From a virus (lineage: Duplodnaviria; Caudoviricetes), in the IMG/VR virus record IMGVR_UViG_3300024988_000243, positions 1 through 48,349 of that record: a stretch of DNA of 48,349 nt. One strand, given 5' to 3'. The position numbers and the translations under genes are program-made. The stretch's first letter is position 1, and every line of letters begins with the position of its first letter. The notes under the pieces were generated by a model, which searched no databases, was not told where the DNA came from, and was given only the letters and a program-made list of their open reading frames with translations. Positions 10,239 through 46,905 of this stretch are shown here, in pieces.

Positions 10239-10315
<77 letters not shown>

Positions 10316-11885: not shown

Positions 11886-12401
11886 ATGGGTACTTTAAAC
11901 TTAACGGCAGTCACACCAGATACACCGTATATCAAAAAAATCAAATTAGCTTTAGAAAAGGCAACAGGTCAAAGCATTCCCTTAGTTGAAATTAAAAAGG
12001 TTCAGCGTAAAGGTGGTGTAAGCGTTGTACCTATCTTTTTAGTATTTGCTGGTGGACAAGAGCTAACATTATTCGCTCGTGCAAGTGCAGATGTCTTCAA
12101 ATCTGAATTGAACGGAAAAGAGATCGTTTTAGCAGGTGATTTCAGTGACGATTATCAACAGACTTTTGATAACGCCGTTTCTGGAATGGCAAAGTTAATT
12201 CGTGAATCACAAGCCAAAGTTGAGCAACAAAACCAAAAAGAAAAGGTCAAATTGCCACCACGAAAAAATCGTAGTATCCAGCAGCAAATCAGTGATAAGC
12301 GCGAAGAAGAAACACAACTCGATCAAGAGCTATCAAATCTGACAGCACAACGAGATCAACTACTCGAGCAATTGAAACAAGCACAGGCAAATGCAGCTTA
12401 A
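11886..12401 (+). CDS. Hdf/DarA N-terminal-like head-associated protein
   Basis: KKVQRKGGVSVVPIFLVFAGGQELTLF resembles the DarA_N fold and the GQTITIVF block of the 35990 ORF; coiled-coil tail. Confidence 0.65.
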   Translation: MGTLNLTAVTPDTPYIKKIKLALEKATGQSIPLVEIKKVQRKGGVSVVPIFLVFAGGQELTLFARASADVFKSELNGKEIVLAGDFSDDYQQTFDNAVSGMAKLIRESQAKVEQQNQKEKVKLPPRKNRSIQQQISDKREEETQLDQELSNLTAQRDQLLEQLKQAQANAA

Positions 12402-15916: not shown

Positions 15917-16840
15917 ATGTCTGAAACAGGTCGAAAAACGAAAAGAATTACATTTAATTTACATGAGCGTGGGCGTAAACATTCAGGCAAAGATCGAAGT
16001 AATGTTGATATGAATGAAATGATTCGACAGATCAATAGCCCGCAAGTACAAGAAATGGTTAAAACTGGCACTTTGTATGGATTTAATGGACATGAAATTC
16101 GCAAACGTTACGGGATGAATCCGCCTGACTCCACAGTTATTGATGGCAAGGTAGTCTATCTTGAGCGCTCATTTAGAACTTTAGAATGCTATGCAGATAA
16201 AAACGGGAATGTATCGCATGTCACTGAGTTTTTGGATAATGAATCTGGTGAGTGGGCACGTAAGCAATATCTGGCTCGTATAGGTGGATTTAGTTCAGCA
16301 CAAAATTATAAAAAAGCTGGATTAGGACTAATTCCTGTAGGTTTTTTTGGTTTTGACTATGTGGGTCAACCGAATTATTCAACCAATGTTGGTGATGGTC
16401 AGCTATTTGATGGACTTGCCATTCCTGTAGAACAGAATGGATTAGTCGCATGTTTTGATAGTGCAACAGACCTTACATTACTTTCACCTTCTGAAGCTAT
16501 GATTGCACATTTGCTTGAACAGCAAATTGTCCGTGACTTTGACAATATTCATACTCAGTTACAGCTTTTACAGATGAATAGTCAAGCCTTAGAACAGATT
16601 GATACTTTAGCTGGTCAAATTGCACGTAAAGAAAAGCGGCAATTAATTCAAGCACAGCGTGAGCAAGATCTAAATTCTGGTTTAGTTGGACAGACTCGTT
16701 CTTTTGACTCTGTATGCGCTGAAGCTGAAAAATTGTTAACTGAAAGTGATTTAGCACGTATGCGAATCAGTGGTGAAATGCCCAAAAACAACAAGGTTAA
16801 ACCACGTATTTTCACCAGTATGTTTAGATTTGGGGGATAA
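15917..16840 (+). CDS. Prohead protease/scaffold (P1 Pro-like)
   Basis: GFNGH, GGFSS and GFDYVGQPNY pattern (His/Ser/Asp-type prohead protease); helical C-terminus. Confidence 0.7.
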   Translation: MSETGRKTKRITFNLHERGRKHSGKDRSNVDMNEMIRQINSPQVQEMVKTGTLYGFNGHEIRKRYGMNPPDSTVIDGKVVYLERSFRTLECYADKNGNVSHVTEFLDNESGEWARKQYLARIGGFSSAQNYKKAGLGLIPVGFFGFDYVGQPNYSTNVGDGQLFDGLAIPVEQNGLVACFDSATDLTLLSPSEAMIAHLLEQQIVRDFDNIHTQLQLLQMNSQALEQIDTLAGQIARKEKRQLIQAQREQDLNSGLVGQTRSFDSVCAEAEKLLTESDLARMRISGEMPKNNKVKPRIFTSMFRFGG

Positions 16841-16846
16841 ATAGTT

Positions 16847-17653
16847 ATGTCTTTACCTAAAGATTCTCTTAAATGTATTCAGGATGCTTGGTACAAGCTT
16901 TTAATCGATTTCCGTGCATGGTACATGCCTGAAACCATTCAGACAGAAGAATGGAAAAAGCGAGATATTCGAACAGCAATCAAAAGTTGTCCGTCTCGTA
17001 TGATGGATGACTCAGAATTAATGCTGGCTGAATATCGTAAAAGCCAAAATGCAGATGTTGTAACTGGAGCAACGGCATTCATGCCAATCATGTTGACTGC
17101 TACAGCGATGTTAGATCAACCGCCTGATACGATGCAGCTTTTACCGATGCCTTATTTTGTGCCTGTTGTGATAGGCGATAAGCAAGTAAAAATCCGACTC
17201 ATCGCTAAAACTGTGAGAGCACAATTGGCTTTCTACGCAACTAATGCACATGATGCGCGATCGATCAGCGACCAGTTTTGTACGTATATACAAGATGAAG
17301 GTAAACGCCGTTTCCAAGTGCCTTTTGATATGGGCATGAATCATATTGAAAAAAGTACATTTACAATTGTGGAAAATCAATTGTTACCTTCACCTGTTCC
17401 AAGCGAAGAAATTAACCTGTCTATCTTTATTATTGATACTCAATTAGTTGGCTATACGCCACAAATTATTGGACTTGGTGGACCTAACGATAATACGACG
17501 GATAACGGTTACAATCCGGACGGTTCAGTAGTTGATAAGCCCCTTCAGGATCTAGTTGTAATTCAGGCTGATCAGTTCTCAGTAGATGGTCATACTCGTG
17601 TTTTAGCAGATCGTGATACGGGCAATATTACAGTGGAGCGTATTAATGACTAA
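16847..17653 (+). CDS. Virion structural protein (putative tail completion/neck)
   Basis: 268 aa ORF in a late operon; role inferred from context only. Confidence 0.5.
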   Translation: MSLPKDSLKCIQDAWYKLLIDFRAWYMPETIQTEEWKKRDIRTAIKSCPSRMMDDSELMLAEYRKSQNADVVTGATAFMPIMLTATAMLDQPPDTMQLLPMPYFVPVVIGDKQVKIRLIAKTVRAQLAFYATNAHDARSISDQFCTYIQDEGKRRFQVPFDMGMNHIEKSTFTIVENQLLPSPVPSEEINLSIFIIDTQLVGYTPQIIGLGGPNDNTTDNGYNPDGSVVDKPLQDLVVIQADQFSVDGHTRVLADRDTGNITVERIND

Positions 17654-18131
17654 GTTTATAAATTTTGATGCTGTTTTATTTACAGACTTTGACTCTGCCT
17701 CTTCAAATAAGATACCGAGAACAGTAGAAGAAAATATTTCTCGTGGTCGTGCGGCAATGCGAGTTGTATTGAAGACAAAACAGGATTTTGACCATGCTAT
17801 GTATACGCGGGAGTTAGGTTGGATTGATTTTATTTGGGGAGAAACAGGAGTCGTTCGTCTAAACGGAAAGACAAAGGGCGGGAAAGGGATTGTTCATATC
17901 ATTGAAGCGAGACAACGTAAGAACGCAATGACAGCTCTCGAAGTGCATGCTCTTATGTATCGAATTGTAACTACAATTGCAAGGGCTAAGCCGCATGAGA
18001 AAAATATTGTAGAACGTAATGGTGAAAGGAGATTAACAATCGAATCTGATGGGTTAAAAGTTATTTTGATTAAAGAAATATTAAGAAATGCTTGGTTACT
18101 GAGCGGGTTTGAAAATCAAACTATTGTTTGA
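17646..18131 (+). CDS. PBECR-type (phage Barnase/EndoU/colicin E5-D/RelE-like) nuclease
   Basis: AMYTRELGWIDFIWG...GKGIVHIIEAR...NAWLLSGFE pattern of PBECR1 domains; N-terminal FDA/FDS leader. Confidence 0.7.
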   Translation: MTKFINFDAVLFTDFDSASSNKIPRTVEENISRGRAAMRVVLKTKQDFDHAMYTRELGWIDFIWGETGVVRLNGKTKGGKGIVHIIEARQRKNAMTALEVHALMYRIVTTIARAKPHEKNIVERNGERRLTIESDGLKVILIKEILRNAWLLSGFENQTIV

Positions 18132-18175
18132 TATCTAAATGAAATTAGATTTAGCTCTATATTAAAATGGTAATT

Positions 18176-18272
18176 TAAAGCTATCGTTGAATATGGTAAC
18201 GCCGATGGGAAAACCATATCTACGCATTGCAATCCTACACCTCGCCGTATTGCAATGGGAGCGATAGCTTTA
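18176..18272 (-). ncRNA. Candidate structured small RNA (three-way junction)
   Basis: Perfect stems 18176-18186/18262-18272, 18191-18197/18213-18219 and 18225-18233/18249-18257, plus a minus-strand promoter. Strand is inferred from the promoter. Confidence 0.6.
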
Positions 18273-18274
18273 TT

Positions 18275-18302
18275 AATTTACTACATTTCCAAAATTTGTC
18301 AA
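18275..18302 (-). promoter_or_regulatory. Sigma70-like promoter pointing into the structured element
   Basis: Minus strand TTGACA (18302-18297), 16 nt spacer, TAAATT (18280-18275). Confidence 0.6.
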
Positions 18303-18460
18303 ATAAACAAAATCACAGAATATGTTCAACAAACATAATATTAATTCCTTTATAGAGACCAAGATTTTTAATCAATTTATATCTTTTAAAATATTGGAAC
18401 TTAGTAGCCTTAGCAAAGTATAAAAAATACAAAATAACCATAGTGATAAATAGGTGATCT

Positions 18461-23015: not shown

Positions 23016-24770
23016 ATGTCAGTTTTATCTGATTCTCAAAATGCACAATATCAAGCGCAATTATCAGCAGTTGCACAATGCCAAAACTATTTTTATCAAC
23101 AGGGTGAAACAGGAAGTTTTGATAGTGTAAACAATATGGTCGAAACGAGACCCACAGTATTAAATCAAATTCTAGACACCATTGGATTTGATAGTGCTCT
23201 AGATATAGATAATGCGATTAAATGTGGTATTTCACAATATCAGTATTGTCATGGTGGTGATCTTCCACATCCTTCTGTTTTAGCCACTGCATTAAATGCA
23301 GGATATATAATTGCTAATAAAATTAAACCTTTAGCAGGAACTTATCAAAAGTTCGAAGATGGTTTTGATGATGTAAGTAATACGCATCAAGAATCAGTCA
23401 GTATTGTACCTGCTGTTACTGTAGCAACAATCGCCACTTTAATTGCATTTGCAACACCGATTATTGCGTACATTCCTAATAGTAATGGTTCAAATGAAGT
23501 ACCTATTGTAGCTGTTCGTTTCACAACAGATCGCGCTTTTGGTGCTATGAATAAAGGTGAATATTTGGATGGAATAAATGCATCTAAACCATATTCAGAA
23601 GGCCGCTTCCGTTTTGTGTTAGATAATGGAGGTTCTGGAACTACATATACAACAACCGCTCATACGAAATATGCAGACTTTTCTGCTAAGACACCTGATA
23701 CAAATGCCCCATTATTACCATTTATTGGGGGAAATATATCAATCAGAATTAATGGTAAAGAAGTTGCTCACACGCGTAACCGTAGTAAGTCGAAATTAAC
23801 TGGTCAAATTTCGGCTATTGCTGAAAAATCAGCAAAAATTGCTGGTGTAGAATATAAAGTAACTGCGAGTTCAATTAATTTAGATACGAGTGTTATTTCC
23901 GTAACTTTAGATCAAGCCTTACCAAATGGTGCAAAATTGGAGGTATTTTTAGTTGCTGATTATGATGCTCGTGATAATGCTAATAAATATAAGCTTGATC
24001 CTGTTGGTGTCAGTATCATGGCAGATTATGAGACTCTCGTAAGCTCACCAATTGTCACCCAAATTCGAGCATCTAAGTTATTGATCAATCAGATTACAAG
24101 CGAATTAAATGTTGGTTTTATTGGTACAGCATTGTCATTAATGCAGGGTAAAATTTATCTTGAACAAACTGTGCGACTACTTGGCGAAGGCAAAGAACGT
24201 GCTCAATATAATGAACGTGAGTTTACATTTGATGTAAGCCGAGGAGTAACAGGTAATTTAGCTGCCGCATACAATACGACTAGCGATCTATTTGGTGAAT
24301 TGATGAAATATATCGAAGCCGCTAAAACAGGAATTGTTCAAGATACTGGTGGAGCAACAATTGGGTTTGATTTATATGTTGGTGACAATGCTAAAGTTTT
24401 CTTTGCACAGTTATCAGCTGATAAAATGCCAACCAAAACTGGAGCAACAGCTGGACATGGACAGATTGTTCGTATTGGGACACTAGTTGATGGTACTAAT
24501 GTTTATCATGTTCCAAGTTCTGCTGGTGTATTAGTTGAAGTAAATCAAGCATTTGAAATGCTATTGGTCGGGCGTGGTAGTGAGCCTGTCCGCAATCCTT
24601 TGGTTGGTATGATTGAAATGCCATTAACCGTTAGTGAGGCTACGCCTGATCCACGTGAGAGTTTACTTGGTCTAATTGGTTCACAAGCTGCTGAGTTAAA
24701 TCCACTTGATCGTTATGCAGACCAATTTGCATTGATCAACGCATTGAATATGCCAAGACTTAAAAACTAA
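23016..24770 (+). CDS. Major capsid protein (P1 gp23-like)
   Basis: 584 aa, own late motif and strong terminator, N-terminal propeptide-like region with FDS motifs, RIGTLVDGTNVYH block. Confidence 0.75.
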   Translation: MSVLSDSQNAQYQAQLSAVAQCQNYFYQQGETGSFDSVNNMVETRPTVLNQILDTIGFDSALDIDNAIKCGISQYQYCHGGDLPHPSVLATALNAGYIIANKIKPLAGTYQKFEDGFDDVSNTHQESVSIVPAVTVATIATLIAFATPIIAYIPNSNGSNEVPIVAVRFTTDRAFGAMNKGEYLDGINASKPYSEGRFRFVLDNGGSGTTYTTTAHTKYADFSAKTPDTNAPLLPFIGGNISIRINGKEVAHTRNRSKSKLTGQISAIAEKSAKIAGVEYKVTASSINLDTSVISVTLDQALPNGAKLEVFLVADYDARDNANKYKLDPVGVSIMADYETLVSSPIVTQIRASKLLINQITSELNVGFIGTALSLMQGKIYLEQTVRLLGEGKERAQYNEREFTFDVSRGVTGNLAAAYNTTSDLFGELMKYIEAAKTGIVQDTGGATIGFDLYVGDNAKVFFAQLSADKMPTKTGATAGHGQIVRIGTLVDGTNVYHVPSSAGVLVEVNQAFEMLLVGRGSEPVRNPLVGMIEMPLTVSEATPDPRESLLGLIGSQAAELNPLDRYADQFALINALNMPRLKN

Positions 24771-26205: not shown

Positions 26206-26487
26206 GTGAACACAACAAAGATATTAGGTGAGGGGGTTGGGATACAAAGCCAAGGCATTGTAGATCAGACCGAAACACAAACAAATGAAGGTCTTACCTC
26301 AGCTTTAATTATAGGGCGTTTTATGCGTGGACGCGTAGATAAACCTATGACCATCCATCAAGGCAATATTCGTGGTCAATTAGGCTATGAGCCAAATAAT
26401 ACTGATTACATTGCTGTTCAAGATTGCTTAGATACTGGTGTGCCAAGTGTCCGAGTATTACGTGTTAGATCAATAACAGAAATGTAA
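26206..26487 (+). CDS. Tail sheath N-terminal module (stand-alone)
   Basis: IIGRFMRGRVDKP...VRVLRV matches the usual sheath N-terminus and directly precedes the sheath body. Confidence 0.65.
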   Translation: MNTTKILGEGVGIQSQGIVDQTETQTNEGLTSALIIGRFMRGRVDKPMTIHQGNIRGQLGYEPNNTDYIAVQDCLDTGVPSVRVLRVRSITEM

Positions 26488-26503
26488 GGTTAATGGAGTA
26501 AAT

Positions 26504-27787
26504 ATGTCAAATTTAAAATTAACCAGTAATGGAACCTTAATTCTAGACGGTAATAGCGCTGCAGTATTGGATCTAAATTTTGAGACCTTTAGCTTTTTAA
26601 AAAATACAGACCTTGAAGTTGCCTTTTTTAGTAAAGTGGTTACGCCTACTTCACTTCTAGACATCACAATGCATTTGCGAATCATCGATTCAATCACAGG
26701 CGATGAAGTGATTAAAATCAAGGGTATCGTTGATGGTGATCCAGAAAACTTAGCTTCCATTATTGCTGTTGCAGATGCTACTGAAGAATTTGAACAATTT
26801 GATTTACAAATCCATGATGCATTAGGTGCAATTTTATTAAGTCGTGCTTTTAATCCAGCAAATAGTCTTGGACGAAATAAGGAAACATTGTCTTTATCAG
26901 ATGAAGTGCCGCTAAATTTCAATGCTGATGAAACCTATTCATTGATTACCACTTTAGTTGATAAACCAGCTTATTTGGTTTTACCTAGAGTAATTGATAT
27001 TGATGTTTACGTTTCCTTATTACGTGTAGCAGAAAAACTAAATATTCCGTTGGATGTTGAGATTGACGCAACTATGACAGCCGAACAAGCGATTCAATTT
27101 GCTGAAAGTCTGGATGCTCAAACTCATCAAGTCCAACTCATTTGGTCTCCGAATGTATGTCGTGCAAGAGATACAACTTCTCTACGTGGTCGTAAAGTCC
27201 CAGCAACTTATATTGGTCAGTACATCGGTGACAAGTTGCTACGTAATGCTCGTATTAATGCTCACGGTTTTGCACCTATTCATTATGCAGTCGCTTGGAA
27301 AGACTATCCTTTTAAGAAAAAAGCTTTAGAACTACGTTCAGATGTTGTACTTGATGAATCAACTCTAGAAATGCTGGCCCAAGCTAAAGTGAATGTTGTT
27401 CGTCCGATTAAGTTTGAGCGTGTGATGTATGTCCTAAGCGATGTTCTTACTCAGCGACAAAGTAAAAACAGTGCATTGCGCTTGGTGAATGCTGCTGAAA
27501 TCGCTATGCGCACCAAAAATGATGTTGTCGATATTCTAAAGAATCATATGTTGAAACCAACCGAAGATTATTTAGATAAAGCGAGTAAGGAAATAGACAA
27601 ATATTTGTCTGAAGCTGCGACTTCGGGCTGGTTAAAACCTGCTGAAGATTTGAATGGTAAACCTTACGCATTTAGATTAATTCCTGACAAGGATTTTCCG
27701 TTTGAACGAGTTCGTTTGTATTTGGCACGCCGTCCAGAAGGTGCAACCCGTTCTGTAATTTTTGATGACGATGTTTTAGTTAAATAA
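26504..27787 (+). CDS. Contractile tail sheath protein (P1 gp22-like, main part)
   Basis: EMLAQAKVNVV, SALRLVN and C-terminal PEGATRSVIF sheath-like blocks. Confidence 0.75.
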   Translation: MSNLKLTSNGTLILDGNSAAVLDLNFETFSFLKNTDLEVAFFSKVVTPTSLLDITMHLRIIDSITGDEVIKIKGIVDGDPENLASIIAVADATEEFEQFDLQIHDALGAILLSRAFNPANSLGRNKETLSLSDEVPLNFNADETYSLITTLVDKPAYLVLPRVIDIDVYVSLLRVAEKLNIPLDVEIDATMTAEQAIQFAESLDAQTHQVQLIWSPNVCRARDTTSLRGRKVPATYIGQYIGDKLLRNARINAHGFAPIHYAVAWKDYPFKKKALELRSDVVLDESTLEMLAQAKVNVVRPIKFERVMYVLSDVLTQRQSKNSALRLVNAAEIAMRTKNDVVDILKNHMLKPTEDYLDKASKEIDKYLSEAATSGWLKPAEDLNGKPYAFRLIPDKDFPFERVRLYLARRPEGATRSVIFDDDVLVK

Positions 27788-35989: not shown

Positions 35990-37360
35990 ATGCGAAATTT
36001 CGACATATTTACTTCATTATATGGGCCACACACCAGTCGTTTAGTACAGGGTTTTGATTTTGTAAATAGTGGGGGGTGTTCAATTGGAGTGATCAAAGGG
36101 AAATATTGTCAGCTTAATGCGATTGTGGCAGAGTCAGCAACAGAAGAAGATCAGTGGCGTATTGTGAATCTAAAAGGTTCAATCAATAACATCGCAGCCT
36201 TTGACTCAATTGCCGTTTTAGGTGCAGTTGATAATGATCATGCCAGTGCATTAGCACAATTGCAGTTTGGACGTATGTTTGATGCTATTGAAGATGATGT
36301 AATTGAAAGTAATACCAACGGTCTATTGCGACATTTAGCAACACCACAATTTCATAAGCATAAACAACTTATCCATCGAGCTCATTTAGTCGCATTACAA
36401 GATATTCCGTGTGCGGTATTACCAAGTTGGGATGGTATAGAACTTACAACGCATGAAGCAAAAACAGCAAATCTGCTTTTAGATATGCAACTTCATGATG
36501 ACAATACTGAACTTTTATCAAGTTTCGATGGTATATCTAATTTACTTAGATCAATTGGTGCTGAACATCCTGATTTTGATTCAATTATTGTTAAATATCA
36601 ATATTTCGATAAGTTGATAGCTATGCTCCATACTGCAATCAAAATTGCATCAAAAGGCGGCGTAGAAGTTATAAGTGTAGATCAAAGTAAGCCATTTCAG
36701 CACAAAAAAATGCTGAATGTTGCTGTTTCCTATGATTTTGAAGATGGGCAAACTATCACGATTGTATTTCATCATCCTGATAGGAGTGTTAAGCGGATTG
36801 TAGCGCAAGATATATTATTATCTTGGAAAATTTTGATGAATAAGCGCGATATTACTAGCGTAATTCAACCCAAACAAGCTGAGAATATTGCTTTACCTGT
36901 GCTTGCAGGACGTTTAGTTAAATTGATTAATCAGAACAGCTTACGTTTTAAACGCACACAAAAGAAAAAAGCTGGAAATGAGCTAGTTTGGGCTGTTGCT
37001 AAACAACGTATCGCAAATAAGCGCAATCAAAGAAAGGCATTGGTTTCCCAGATTCAGGATTTACTAAATCAAATTGAGCGTTTGAATATTCAAAAGGAAG
37101 TTAAAAATCCCAATAATAGTGCTATTGGATCTGCAATGTTTAGCGCTGACAATCATGCAAACTCAAATGTGAATAGTGATGATACAGACTATCTAAACAA
37201 AGTCATCAAGGGTGATGTTGATTTTTCTAAAGCTGATGATGTTGAAGCACAACTTGAATCAATTAGTGAACGTTTAACGTCTGAAACCAATGATTTATTT
37301 GAAAAGGCTGTTTCTGCTTATTCAATGTATCAAATAAAAAAAGCTGAAACGGTCAATTAA
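35990..37360 (+). CDS. darA: DarA-like head protein (defence against restriction)
   Basis: DarA_N-like block (SKPFQH...FEDGQTITIVFHHPD...WKILMNKRDIT), coiled coil, DarA_C-like DTDYLNKVIKG. Confidence 0.7.
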   Translation: MRNFDIFTSLYGPHTSRLVQGFDFVNSGGCSIGVIKGKYCQLNAIVAESATEEDQWRIVNLKGSINNIAAFDSIAVLGAVDNDHASALAQLQFGRMFDAIEDDVIESNTNGLLRHLATPQFHKHKQLIHRAHLVALQDIPCAVLPSWDGIELTTHEAKTANLLLDMQLHDDNTELLSSFDGISNLLRSIGAEHPDFDSIIVKYQYFDKLIAMLHTAIKIASKGGVEVISVDQSKPFQHKKMLNVAVSYDFEDGQTITIVFHHPDRSVKRIVAQDILLSWKILMNKRDITSVIQPKQAENIALPVLAGRLVKLINQNSLRFKRTQKKKAGNELVWAVAKQRIANKRNQRKALVSQIQDLLNQIERLNIQKEVKNPNNSAIGSAMFSADNHANSNVNSDDTDYLNKVIKGDVDFSKADDVEAQLESISERLTSETNDLFEKAVSAYSMYQIKKAETVN

Positions 37361-37373
37361 GGAAAAGCTTTAA

Positions 37374-37691
37374 ATGAATGGCTTAAAGAAGTTAAAACTT
37401 ACAAAAGAATTACGTGCTTTGCTTGAGCAGATCCCAAATCTAAAGGGGATGGAAAAGCTTCAAAGTACAAAACGATTGCGAGAATTGATTGAATTACTTG
37501 GCGGACAAGCGAATCAATCAGTCAATAAATTATTTCAGTCTATTATTGATGGTGACGTTAAAGTATCCATTGAATTACTTAAGCAAGTTCGTAGTGAAGC
37601 TGAAAAGAATTTGAATGATCCGTTATTGATTGAAGCCGTTAATGTTCTTATTACTCAAGTGAATGATCTGGTTGGAACTGAACAAGCTTAG
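37374..37691 (+). CDS. Small protein of the dar operon
   Basis: LKKLKL/MEKLQ repeat and LFQSIIDG similar to the DarA C-terminal motif. Confidence 0.65.
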   Translation: MNGLKKLKLTKELRALLEQIPNLKGMEKLQSTKRLRELIELLGGQANQSVNKLFQSIIDGDVKVSIELLKQVRSEAEKNLNDPLLIEAVNVLITQVNDLVGTEQA

Positions 37692-37748
37692 CCAGTCTTG
37701 AAGCTCTCAAAATAGTCCTAAATGGGCTATTTTTTTTGAGTTTTTGAA

Positions 37749-38914
37749 ATGAGTAAAATTGGCAATATTTCCAAAGATACAGATGTTTTGATTGCTATCG
37801 ATACAATGGTTACAGCTTTGGGTGATCAAGTAATCAGTGAGTGGGATAGTGAGCAGGCTGATCAAGATTTTAATGAAATTTTGACAATAAATAATAATGA
37901 TTACATTAAATCTGCGAAATCCTATTTTTCAGAAAACCTACAGTCTAAACAAATCAAAACAGCTATTGGATTAGTAACAATTAACTCAAAGTCGAAGGGG
38001 AAGATGCTTCATCGTCTGCGTCCAAGTTCGGCTCTAGTCATACCACGTATTCCTGAAATTTTAATGTATGGAAAAATTGGAGAACGTGAGGAATTAAATA
38101 AAGAGCGATCAGATGATTTTGTTGCTTTTTATACTTTTGAAAAGGTTATTCAGATAGAGACGTTGAGCATTATTGCTCGTATTAAAGTAGGGGAGCTATC
38201 AAATGGATTATTAGCTTATTATCTTGCTGCAAAAAAAGAAGTCCCAGATTTTGATTCCTCGTGGGTCGATGATCAAACAAAGACGAGAGGTCACAAAGAG
38301 GGACTTGAAAGCCAGTTTACACCTAACTTACATGCTCAAGGCACCATAGGCTTAGAAACCGACTTCGATTCAATTGAATCATACGATGACAATGAAATCA
38401 ATCTATTTATACAAGTTCTAGACAAAAATGGTAATGTCTTAACTGAAAATGAAGCTGAAAAGCTCATCTTTGGGGAAAGCCGTAACTCTGACCAGAATAA
38501 AATTTTAAAAGGACGTAGTAATAACGTCAAAACAGCCAAAGGAACCAAAGTATCAACCGTATTTGCTGTGTTAGAAGCCGATCAAGTGATTGCTTCACAT
38601 ACGACTACAGGGGCGGAAAATCCTAATTATCCTCAAGAACTTCAACCATGAGATCGTAGTCGAGAATCTTCCCAAGCATGGGTGCAAAAAACTTCAAATA
38701 CTTTAGATCCTGAAAGCTTGGAACGTTCAGGTCGTGCAGATACTGGTGCGCCTATCGTCGGGGATGATTTGGTGGTTGAGTCTGGTAATTGCCGTACCAT
38801 GGCAATCCAGTTTGCCTATTAGCGTGGAAATGCTGATGAATACAAAGAATGGTTGATTGGTGAATCAGAATATTTTGGCTTTAGCGCCGATCAAATCAAC
38901 CAAAGCTATTTATA
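37749..38914 (+). pseudogene. Polyvalent protein (LPD3-like plus DdrB-like ParB domain), interrupted and truncated
   Basis: ORF stops at TGA 38649-38651 within PQELQP*DRSR. Homology continues in frame (GAPIVGDDLVVESGNCRTMAI), second stop TAG 38820-38822, then joins Rhs DNA near 38900. Confidence 0.75.
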
Positions 38915-39836
38915 GCTCAGGTAATACGGCTCGAATCTATTATATTGTAACAGATGCACAAAACACTCCAAGACGTTTAATTGACAGCGGGACACAAGCA
39001 GTTGCATGGAGTTGGGACAGTACAGCCTTTGGTCTAGGTGCTCCAACGGGTACAGAAACTTTTAACTTACGTTTTCCAGGTCAGTATTTTGATGCGGCAA
39101 CAGGTCAGTTCTATAATCACAATCGTTATTACAACCCTGAATTGGGTCGTTATATGGAAGCTGATCCGATTGGGTTAGATGGTGGTCTGAATCCGTATGC
39201 GTATGCAGGTAGCAATCCTGTCATGTTTAGTGATCCAAGTGGATTAATGAGTATGTTGGATGATGCTGGTTTATCAATGGTTACAGGTCTTAATAATTCA
39301 TTAAATCAGATTATTCTTAACCAGCAGATTAAACTGTTAAATAGCTCCTTAGCAATGACAGAGTTATCAGATTCTGAGCTAGGTAATATTACAGGGGGGG
39401 TGCCCCATTGTTTTATGTTGGTGGAGCTGCTTTAGGATTTACCCTATCTGTTGATAGTTTGGTAGATGGTCAACCCCCTCAAGGAAAAGGGGCAAAAGTT
39501 GCAGATAAGGCATTTGATTTTTATAGAGGGGCTAAAGCAGCCAATATTCCACATTTTAATCCGCGACCAAGTGACTTTAAAGTTGATCTTAACGGTTTTG
39601 TAAAAAATGGCAGTGACCCTTTTGCGCGAGGAGTATCGTTATTTGATAATTCTAACAGTTTAATTTCAAAGGGGTTTATTCCATATAAGGTTGATCCAAA
39701 AAGTTTTCCAAAAGAACTAGGAATTTTTCAGAGAGCTACAGATCCAAAACATTTTGAAATTATTCCTACTCCTGGAACTTTTTTAACTCCTGAGCAATAT
39801 ATACACTTGTGTTCTCAAATTAAATGTGTGAGATGA
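38903..39836 (+). pseudogene. rhs: Orphan Rhs core plus C-terminal toxin (Tse2/ADP-ribosyltransferase-like), frameshifted at a G7 tract
   Basis: NLRFPGQY...HNRYYNPELGRY...DPIGLDGGLNPYAYAGSNPV..DPSG; toxin FYRG..RGVS..HFEIIP in the next frame; G7 at 39394-39400. Confidence 0.8.

Positions 39837-46828: not shown

Positions 46829-46905
<77 letters not shown>

Follow-up and report, generated by a model that had tools for sequence, protein, structure and literature searches.

Among the described systems close to the locus analyzed here are the type III toxin-antitoxin families ToxIN, CptIN and TenpIN, as they too combine an endoribonuclease with a non-coding RNA, in tandem copies at some loci; in the available text of PMC12283969, the type III antitoxin is described as pseudoknot repeats that lie upstream of the toxin within one operon and before its terminator. 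The locus lies in a stretch of 48,349 nucleotides (hereafter the window), which is the entire virus record IMGVR_UViG_3300024988_000243, and consists of a gene for a predicted ribonuclease of the PBECR1 family followed by a predicted RNA of 97 nt. This element differs from the type III antitoxins in that it is predicted to form a three-way junction, lies downstream of the nuclease gene on the opposite strand, carries a promoter motif of its own and is often found within coding sequence, and its protein partner is of the predicted BECR fold. Instead of the upstream repeats in the toxin operon that define type III, all 63 hits of a covariance model built for the element (R1) are downstream and antisense, and PF18809 (PBECR1) is the only family that matches the window nuclease at E<=0.1, with no assignment to ToxN, CptN or TenpN. 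The element likely acts like a type III antitoxin while falling outside the ToxIN, CptIN and TenpIN definition, and comparison of the loci suggests that it is probably a constitutive RNA antitoxin which binds and blocks PBECR1.

Three further groups of systems share individual features with this locus. A prophage toxin that is neutralised by direct binding of a conserved structured RNA, in cis as well as in trans, is described for AbiF and its RCd22/abiF motif in the sections available of PMC12373285. AbiF, however, is an Abi_2/AbiD/F protein linked to Cas13 and encoded by an abortive-infection-like gene, whereas PBECR1 is a predicted BECR domain of virion proteins, and the element matches no Rfam family. 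Polymorphic toxins (CdiA-CT/CdiI, BECR-Tox2/Imm2 and MuF) carry a swappable C-terminal toxin with its partner encoded directly behind it, as outlined in the accessible parts of 10.64898/2026.08.28.747851 and PMC5576092; the predicted PBECR1 fold appears related, but their partner is a same-strand protein and the one predicted here is an antisense RNA. The C4 RNA of phages P1 and P7 and the CI RNA of P4 (RF01695) are likewise small multi-arm phage RNAs, and the phage of the window has P1-like morphogenesis genes. These RNAs act by an antisense mechanism, whereas our element has no Rfam match, no loop-complementary target nearby and no antirepressor gene following on the RNA strand.

The same protein family, which stands alone in the window and is fused to other domains in relatives, was described in PMC5512222, where as many as 26% of the polyvalent proteins of phages were found to contain PBECR domains. 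Its section on PBECR predicts a ribonuclease that is likely packaged, proposes mRNA or CRISPR RNA as targets and names neither an inhibitor nor an RNA partner. A search of the full-text literature, mostly outside subscription papers, turned up no paper that links an RNA to PBECR domains, and the words 'noncoding' and 'antisense' occur zero times in the available text of the 2026 BECR preprint (10.64898/2026.08.28.747851). A 33-nt candidate listed in the accessible part of PMC8040213, HMP2_1418, has PBECR1 within 5 kb in 21 of its 104 instances and could overlap a relative of the RNA described here.

A covarying RNA fold on the antisense strand

The first-pass annotation of the window had claimed a 97-nt element with three perfect stems and two 15-nt loops, and all of these were found (Table 1). 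The element starts 44 nt past the PBECR1 stop codon, and no other such three-stem element occurs in the window or in 20 local shuffles. The P2 loop reads ACG-N7-GUAGG, and the junctions GCUCC and CGUAG are near-invariant in the family. A shared CGCCG had also been noted in both loops; it is present on the plus strand of the window but is not retained in the homologues, and was rejected as a feature. Taken alone, the window sequence does not favour the minus strand because the plus strand folds better (single-sequence folding z of -4.9 against -2.5), and the strand is given by the family. Similarly, the minus-strand promoter site by itself is no evidence, as a scan of the window found four sites where 10.6 were expected, which is within chance; the evidence is its conservation.

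Homologues were first collected through the PBECR1 protein, and a common motif was found directly behind the domain. When viral contigs were scanned for the DNA motif only, 36 loci were obtained, to which a looser pattern added 13, while the exact P1-P3 pattern found nothing in viral contigs. From 83 motif matches we kept 49 distinct copies in which at least seven of the nine P2 positions can pair. Across these copies 91% of the cells are paired and 20 of the 26 base pairs change on both sides, so that the covariation proposed as a check in the first-pass annotation does exist. The family covariation score is 0.76, compared with 0.20 in shuffles and 0.11-0.19 in slid controls. P1 and P3 lay outside the selection of copies, yet six of seven pairs in each are changed on both sides. 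A comparison with Rfam, proposed in the same annotation with the phage C4 RNAs in mind, gave no match at the gathering score and none to a relevant family at E<=10 for the element of the window, and no relevant match for 32 further loci. As judged from the alignment, the element family is a real, covarying and uncatalogued RNA fold.

The strand follows from the wobble pairs, which favour the antisense strand. In P2, 41 G-U pairs were counted on the antisense strand and one on the sense strand over the 49 copies, and in P1 and P3 together the counts are 64 and 14. The convergent orientation claimed earlier is thus borne out by the family, though not by the window sequence alone. In 37 of the 49 copies, the top-scoring sigma-70 match within the 70 nt upstream has its end 10-17 nt ahead of an invariant G (13 nt in 16 of them). 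The match beats its own shuffles at p<=0.05 in 31 of the 49; the mean score is 10.8, as against 9.0 for shuffled sequence and 8.4 on the other strand. The TTGACA-16-TAAATT motif reported for the window is therefore present and conserved in position, while being within chance on its own. Three of the copies lacking a good site are the inner ones in tandem pairs. Of the 49 copies, 19 have a U-rich tail after P1, compared with 14% of background windows, and because of it many copies would end at the domain boundary. Strand-biased G-T pairs would suit single-stranded DNA equally well, and the cassette is mobile, so that the fold might instead be a recombination site in which folded single-stranded DNA shuffles the domain cassettes of polyvalent proteins. 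The promoter at a fixed distance with its start at the base of P1 and the U-rich tails are features of a transcript, however, and other swapped C-termini occur without the element; we regard a DNA site as the least probable of the explanations considered.

The geometry of the RNA is fixed across the family, with a P2 of 9 bp, a 15-nt loop and a P3 arm of 29-30 nt. It persists, together with the near-invariant unpaired bases, while the PBECR1 domains fall to 18% identity (median 36%), and a protein-bound RNA would be expected to look so. All of the 11 pairs with the strongest covariation fall within P1-P3 as nested pairs, and no loop-loop pair of the kind that a pseudoknot would need stands out, invariant bases being unable to show covariation.

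Conservation of bases is also apparent where the element overlaps genes. In solo PBECR1 genes it lies entirely beyond the stop codon, whereas over the family 33 of the 49 copies are found inside open frames of large phage proteins, some of about 4,000 codons, and 16 are non-coding. Among the 33 coding copies, the codons ACG, CGT and GGA were kept in 31, 33 and 31 respectively, while the first codon varies between Pro, Ala, Ser and Thr. Selection thus acts on the bases and not on the peptide, since third codon positions are fixed, amino acids change and 16 copies are non-coding. The search patterns selected these conserved bases; in 19 protein-found copies most of the pattern bases are still kept in 16-19, and three in only 12-14. 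An antisense peptide starting from the RUG codon in P2 was considered and rejected, as the frames range from 5 to over 200 aa and show no conservation.

The variable loop segments within an invariant frame, the rigid fold and the one-to-one linkage to the nuclease (see below) would also fit an RNA cofactor or guide, bound by PBECR1 to activate or aim it and perhaps co-packaged in the virion. The variable part of loop 2 is only 6-7 nt, though, and over 38 copies and 1.4 kb of sequence the longest loop match is 6.2-7.2 nt at the own locus and 6.4-7.1 nt at other loci. C4-like loop targets were sought and rejected on the same figures, with none in the window and none within 1.4 kb for the 38 copies. 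In addition, a promoter of the housekeeping type would suggest that the RNA is expressed in the lysogen, at a stage with no need for the nuclease. The earlier suggestion of an antitoxin, decoy or guide is weakened in its guide part by these results, and a cofactor or guide seems improbable.

Linkage of the element to PBECR1

The nuclease gene of the window matches PF18809 with an E value of 1e-12 and 48.9 bits against a curated cut-off of 27.6, which bears out its earlier reading as a PBECR-type nuclease. In the PBECR1 alignment His84 is kept in 36 of 36 sequences and the Ser153 position is Ser or Thr in 31 and Asn in five, an active-site layout of His and Ser/Thr as described for active PBECR families in the relevant section of PMC5512222. 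A structure model with a pLDDT of 92 has a helix and four-stranded sheet topology; it was used for the fold comparison in place of a poor first model (pLDDT 51). The model came closest to CdiA-CT, RelE/ParE and colicin D; these top matches are BECR proteins and form a coherent group, but at Z of 4.0-5.3 the similarity is weak. Several proteins of these types cut tRNA. A sequence search of PDB with PBECR1 found no relative. From sequence and model, the window PBECR1 is predicted to be an active ribonuclease, and the place of its gene among late genes, along with the account of the family in the PBECR section of PMC5512222, suggests that it is packaged in the virion.

The candidate nuclease-RNA module of the first-pass annotation is wider than one locus, since 47 of the 54 loci collected through the protein have an R1 hit directly behind PBECR1. 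Of the seven misses, four are at a contig edge and three come from one divergent phage group. In 927,222 bases R1 gave 63 hits, all of them antisense and adjoining a domain, and no off-target. Among the motif-found loci, PBECR1 lies within 260 nt upstream in 33 of 36 for the first pattern and 10 of 13 for the looser one, as tallied with a profile built partly from the first locus set; one looser-pattern locus is a chance match that does not pair. One locus (L046) is identical to the window. On 146 Moraxellaceae-level genomes R1 gave four hits, with PBECR1 upstream of three and not of the fourth.

The element follows the domain in number as well as in position. A protein with three PBECR1 domains (L072) has one copy behind each, and tandem copies 95-140 nt apart occur in several loci. 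The element is common in one prophage family of Acinetobacter baumannii. In the Hdf-family loci of the phage ABMM1 family (A. baumannii), it was found in all 63 loci with a complete PBECR1, but in none of three with a truncated PBECR1 and none of nine with a different C-terminus. Behind one alternative Hdf C-terminus (L177), a small protein gene takes the place of the element. The slot of the element corresponds to the one in which polymorphic toxins keep their immunity gene, by the rule given in the available text of 10.64898/2026.08.28.747851, and in the window this slot holds no protein gene of at least 50 aa, in agreement with the earlier statement that no protein immunity gene follows the nuclease.

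Some further observations concern these carrier proteins. The C-termini of Hdf-like proteins are swappable (L112-L186), with none in the window (11886-12401) and PBECR1 or others elsewhere, as in a polymorphic toxin carrier. The L177 C-terminus has an ExE motif and is presumably ADP-ribosyltransferase-like, and that of L178 has a weakly phosphoribosyltransferase-like domain. In ABMM1 (L107:5335-5925), the RNA is overlapped by a gene annotated as 'hypothetical protein'; in relatives the gene begins farther downstream, and the annotated start may be wrong.

The three-armed form of the RNA, about the size of a tRNA, with tandem copies and orphan copies, could also be that of a decoy against host defence nucleases, for which PBECR1 would be the processing or protecting enzyme. 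A decoy would have no need for a fixed distance behind each domain or for loss on a domain swap, and Rfam does not call the element a tRNA; this explanation is very improbable, though marginally less so than the DNA site discussed above.

A probable RNA inhibitor and the points against it

The rigid geometry, the invariant unpaired bases, the one copy per domain, the loss with the domain, the housekeeping-type promoter and the immunity-gene slot are the reasons for which we favour an RNA inhibitor. The PBECR1 domain and the folded element would constitute one cassette, in which an RNA of about 90 nt from the opposite strand would bind the domain and block its predicted ribonuclease activity. 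Its own sigma-70 promoter would supply the RNA in the lysogen before any late gene is expressed, and nuclease that leaks through or is made late would thereby be inactive in the producing cell. Nuclease delivered by the virion would then be active only in cells lacking the matching RNA.

Several observations weigh against this explanation. The strictly antisense, convergent position directly 3' of the domain, with a promoter motif of its own, suits base-pairing silencing as well, and convergent antitoxins are frequent in type I systems. The element might thus be a type I-like cis-antisense silencer, where the RNA or convergent transcription would lower the nuclease mRNA by way of its 3' part. 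An RNA that pairs with its own mRNA could do so without a conserved fold, whereas the helices here are constant in length and the unpaired bases fixed. In the solo genes such an RNA would be complementary only to read-through or downstream sequence, while 33 copies are placed in the middle of genes whose proteins reach about 4,000 aa and the orphan copies have no nuclease mRNA to pair with. A silencer is therefore considered unlikely, although it is the strongest of the alternatives to an RNA inhibitor.

The remaining points against the inhibitor concern the evidence for linkage, fold and expression. The pairing in P2 and the invariant bases were partly selected by the search patterns, unlike those of P1 and P3. 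The protein-found hits collapse to 20 distinct RNAs, about half of which are in the R1 training set, and the 63 Hdf-PBECR1 fusions are 93-100% identical and represent roughly one event. PBECR1 domains without the R1 element occur at L044/L064/L065, L108 and L110, and copies of the element without an upstream PBECR1 at L079, L087, L101, L247, L255 and G591. Divergence of the whole RNA is uncorrelated with that of the protein (rho 0.07, p 0.16); only the variable loop tracks it (rho 0.31), which kinship alone could explain. The fold matches of the protein are weak, with a best Z of 5.3, and Foldseek gives none at E<=0.001. Finally, the expression data yielded no transcript: the prophage stretch of A. 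baumannii drew no reads from four raw RNA runs, and these are uninformative as a test, and 14 RNA runs contain the full A. baumannii prophage stretch in the form of contigs, from which neither strand nor ends can be read. Motif fragments were absent from the searched supplements of PMC6182133 and PMC11472050, whose strains may lack the prophage and whose files may lack sequences.

Genomic setting and other BECR families

The phage of the window encodes an integrase, a lambdoid repressor and replication genes, and its P1-like morphogenesis genes include Hdf-like, DdrA-like and PmgG-like ones. Its nearest named relatives are from Acinetobacter, and the region had no blastn match among phage and plasmid records. 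The features of the locus are listed in Table 1.

Table 1. Features of the PBECR1 locus, in positions of the window.
Feature	Positions	Strand	Basis
Conserved late gene upstream of PBECR1 (phrog_4333), flanking the cassette on its left	16847..17653	+	Gene annotation; neighbour comparison
Solo PBECR1 gene, 161 aa; start overlaps the stop of the upstream late gene	17646..18131	+	
Predicted three-way-junction RNA, 97 nt: closing stem P1, 9-bp P2, P3 arm	18176..18272	-	Sequence; covariance model R1
P1, 3' arm, pairs with 18262-18272	18176..18186	-	Sequence; 6/7 family pairs changed on both sides
P3 hairpin, 15-nt loop	18191..18219	-	Sequence; 6/7 family pairs changed on both sides, 82% of cells paired
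P2 hairpin, 9 bp, loop 18234-18248	18225..18257	-	8/9 pairs changed on both sides; antisense-biased G-U
Sigma-70-type promoter motif TTGACA-16-TAAATT; predicted start ~18268-18269	18275..18302	-	Site scan; family position
Gap; 169-aa gene and putative large terminase gene of relatives occupy this position	18303..18460	.	

Ten related phages have no PBECR1 at this site and carry instead a gene of 169 aa and a putative large terminase with an intein, the label 'terminase' being a reading of the sequence, as Pfam names only the Hint domain. This Hint (intein) domain lies near the N-terminus of the protein (L002:7321-9315). In A. bohemicus (L012), the nuclease and the element have the upstream gene on one side and the 169-aa gene, itself intact, on the other, so that the two were recognised as an inserted cassette. 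The idea that the PBECR1 start was taken over from a native gene was dropped, as the native gene is intact there. Both the 169-aa gene and the putative large terminase are absent from the whole window record, and late genes are split, namely the sheath gene (26206-27787) and genes at 35990-39836. The window prophage may therefore be defective, though its cassette is intact.

Two tRNA genes, each with a CAT anticodon, are found at 10239-10312 and 46829-46902, one within the phage and one beside the integrase. A peptide motif, FDSA/FDSV, recurs in PBECR1 (17646-17710) and two late proteins (15917-16840 and 23016-24770), and we take it to be a possible head-processing or packaging signal.

A possibly similar layout was observed behind PBECR2 and PBECR3 domains. 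Seven of eight distinct PBECR2 loci (L187-L195) have an antisense sigma-70 motif at 66-134 nt beyond the domain, where the local background is 0-54% of windows, and no sense-strand promoter motif was found at these loci. The antisense motif is also present at two of three PBECR3 loci (L196-L198) and, at threshold, at one of four EndoU controls. The intervening sequence is common to L190/L192, to L189/L191 and to L196-L198, and is unrelated to R1. Folding z of the 120 nt behind the PBECR2 and PBECR3 domains was not significant, the PBECR2 set had no match in Rfam, and MuF_C was not found in 250 genomes. These loci hint at a general layout, and as they come from small samples they serve as leads.

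Other elements were noted near orphan RNAs and divergent domains. At both L247 (600-900) and L079 (1500-1782), an orphan copy of the RNA is found 5' of a second closed-stem sequence, which is of another kind and has a U run at its end; the one at L247 abuts an LPD13 gene. The arrangement at both looks like an array of immunity RNAs. Behind a divergent PBECR1 at L110 (1770-1850) lies a three-arm fold of a different kind, which has an antisense TACAAT box, and another divergent PBECR1, in Helicobacter phage FrG12G (L108:5330-5430), is followed by an antisense TTGACT-17-TAGGAT within an open reading frame.

The problem to which these results speak is how a phage makes and packages such ribonucleases without harm to its own cell. 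We tentatively suggest, at somewhat less than even confidence, that BECR ribonucleases delivered by phages use RNA and not protein as immunity factor, with an antisense gene and promoter behind each domain, even inside frames that encode virion proteins of several thousand residues, such that PBECR1, PBECR2, PBECR3 and LPD13 would each have an RNA family of their own and orphan RNAs would immunise against rival phages. If this is true, there would be a class of RNA antitoxins for the BECR fold, non-coding RNA genes and their promoters would be hidden antisense within long phage genes, and the 'linker' peptide behind the domain would be a by-product of the RNA. The system itself is small, with one protein of 161 aa and one RNA of 97 nt.
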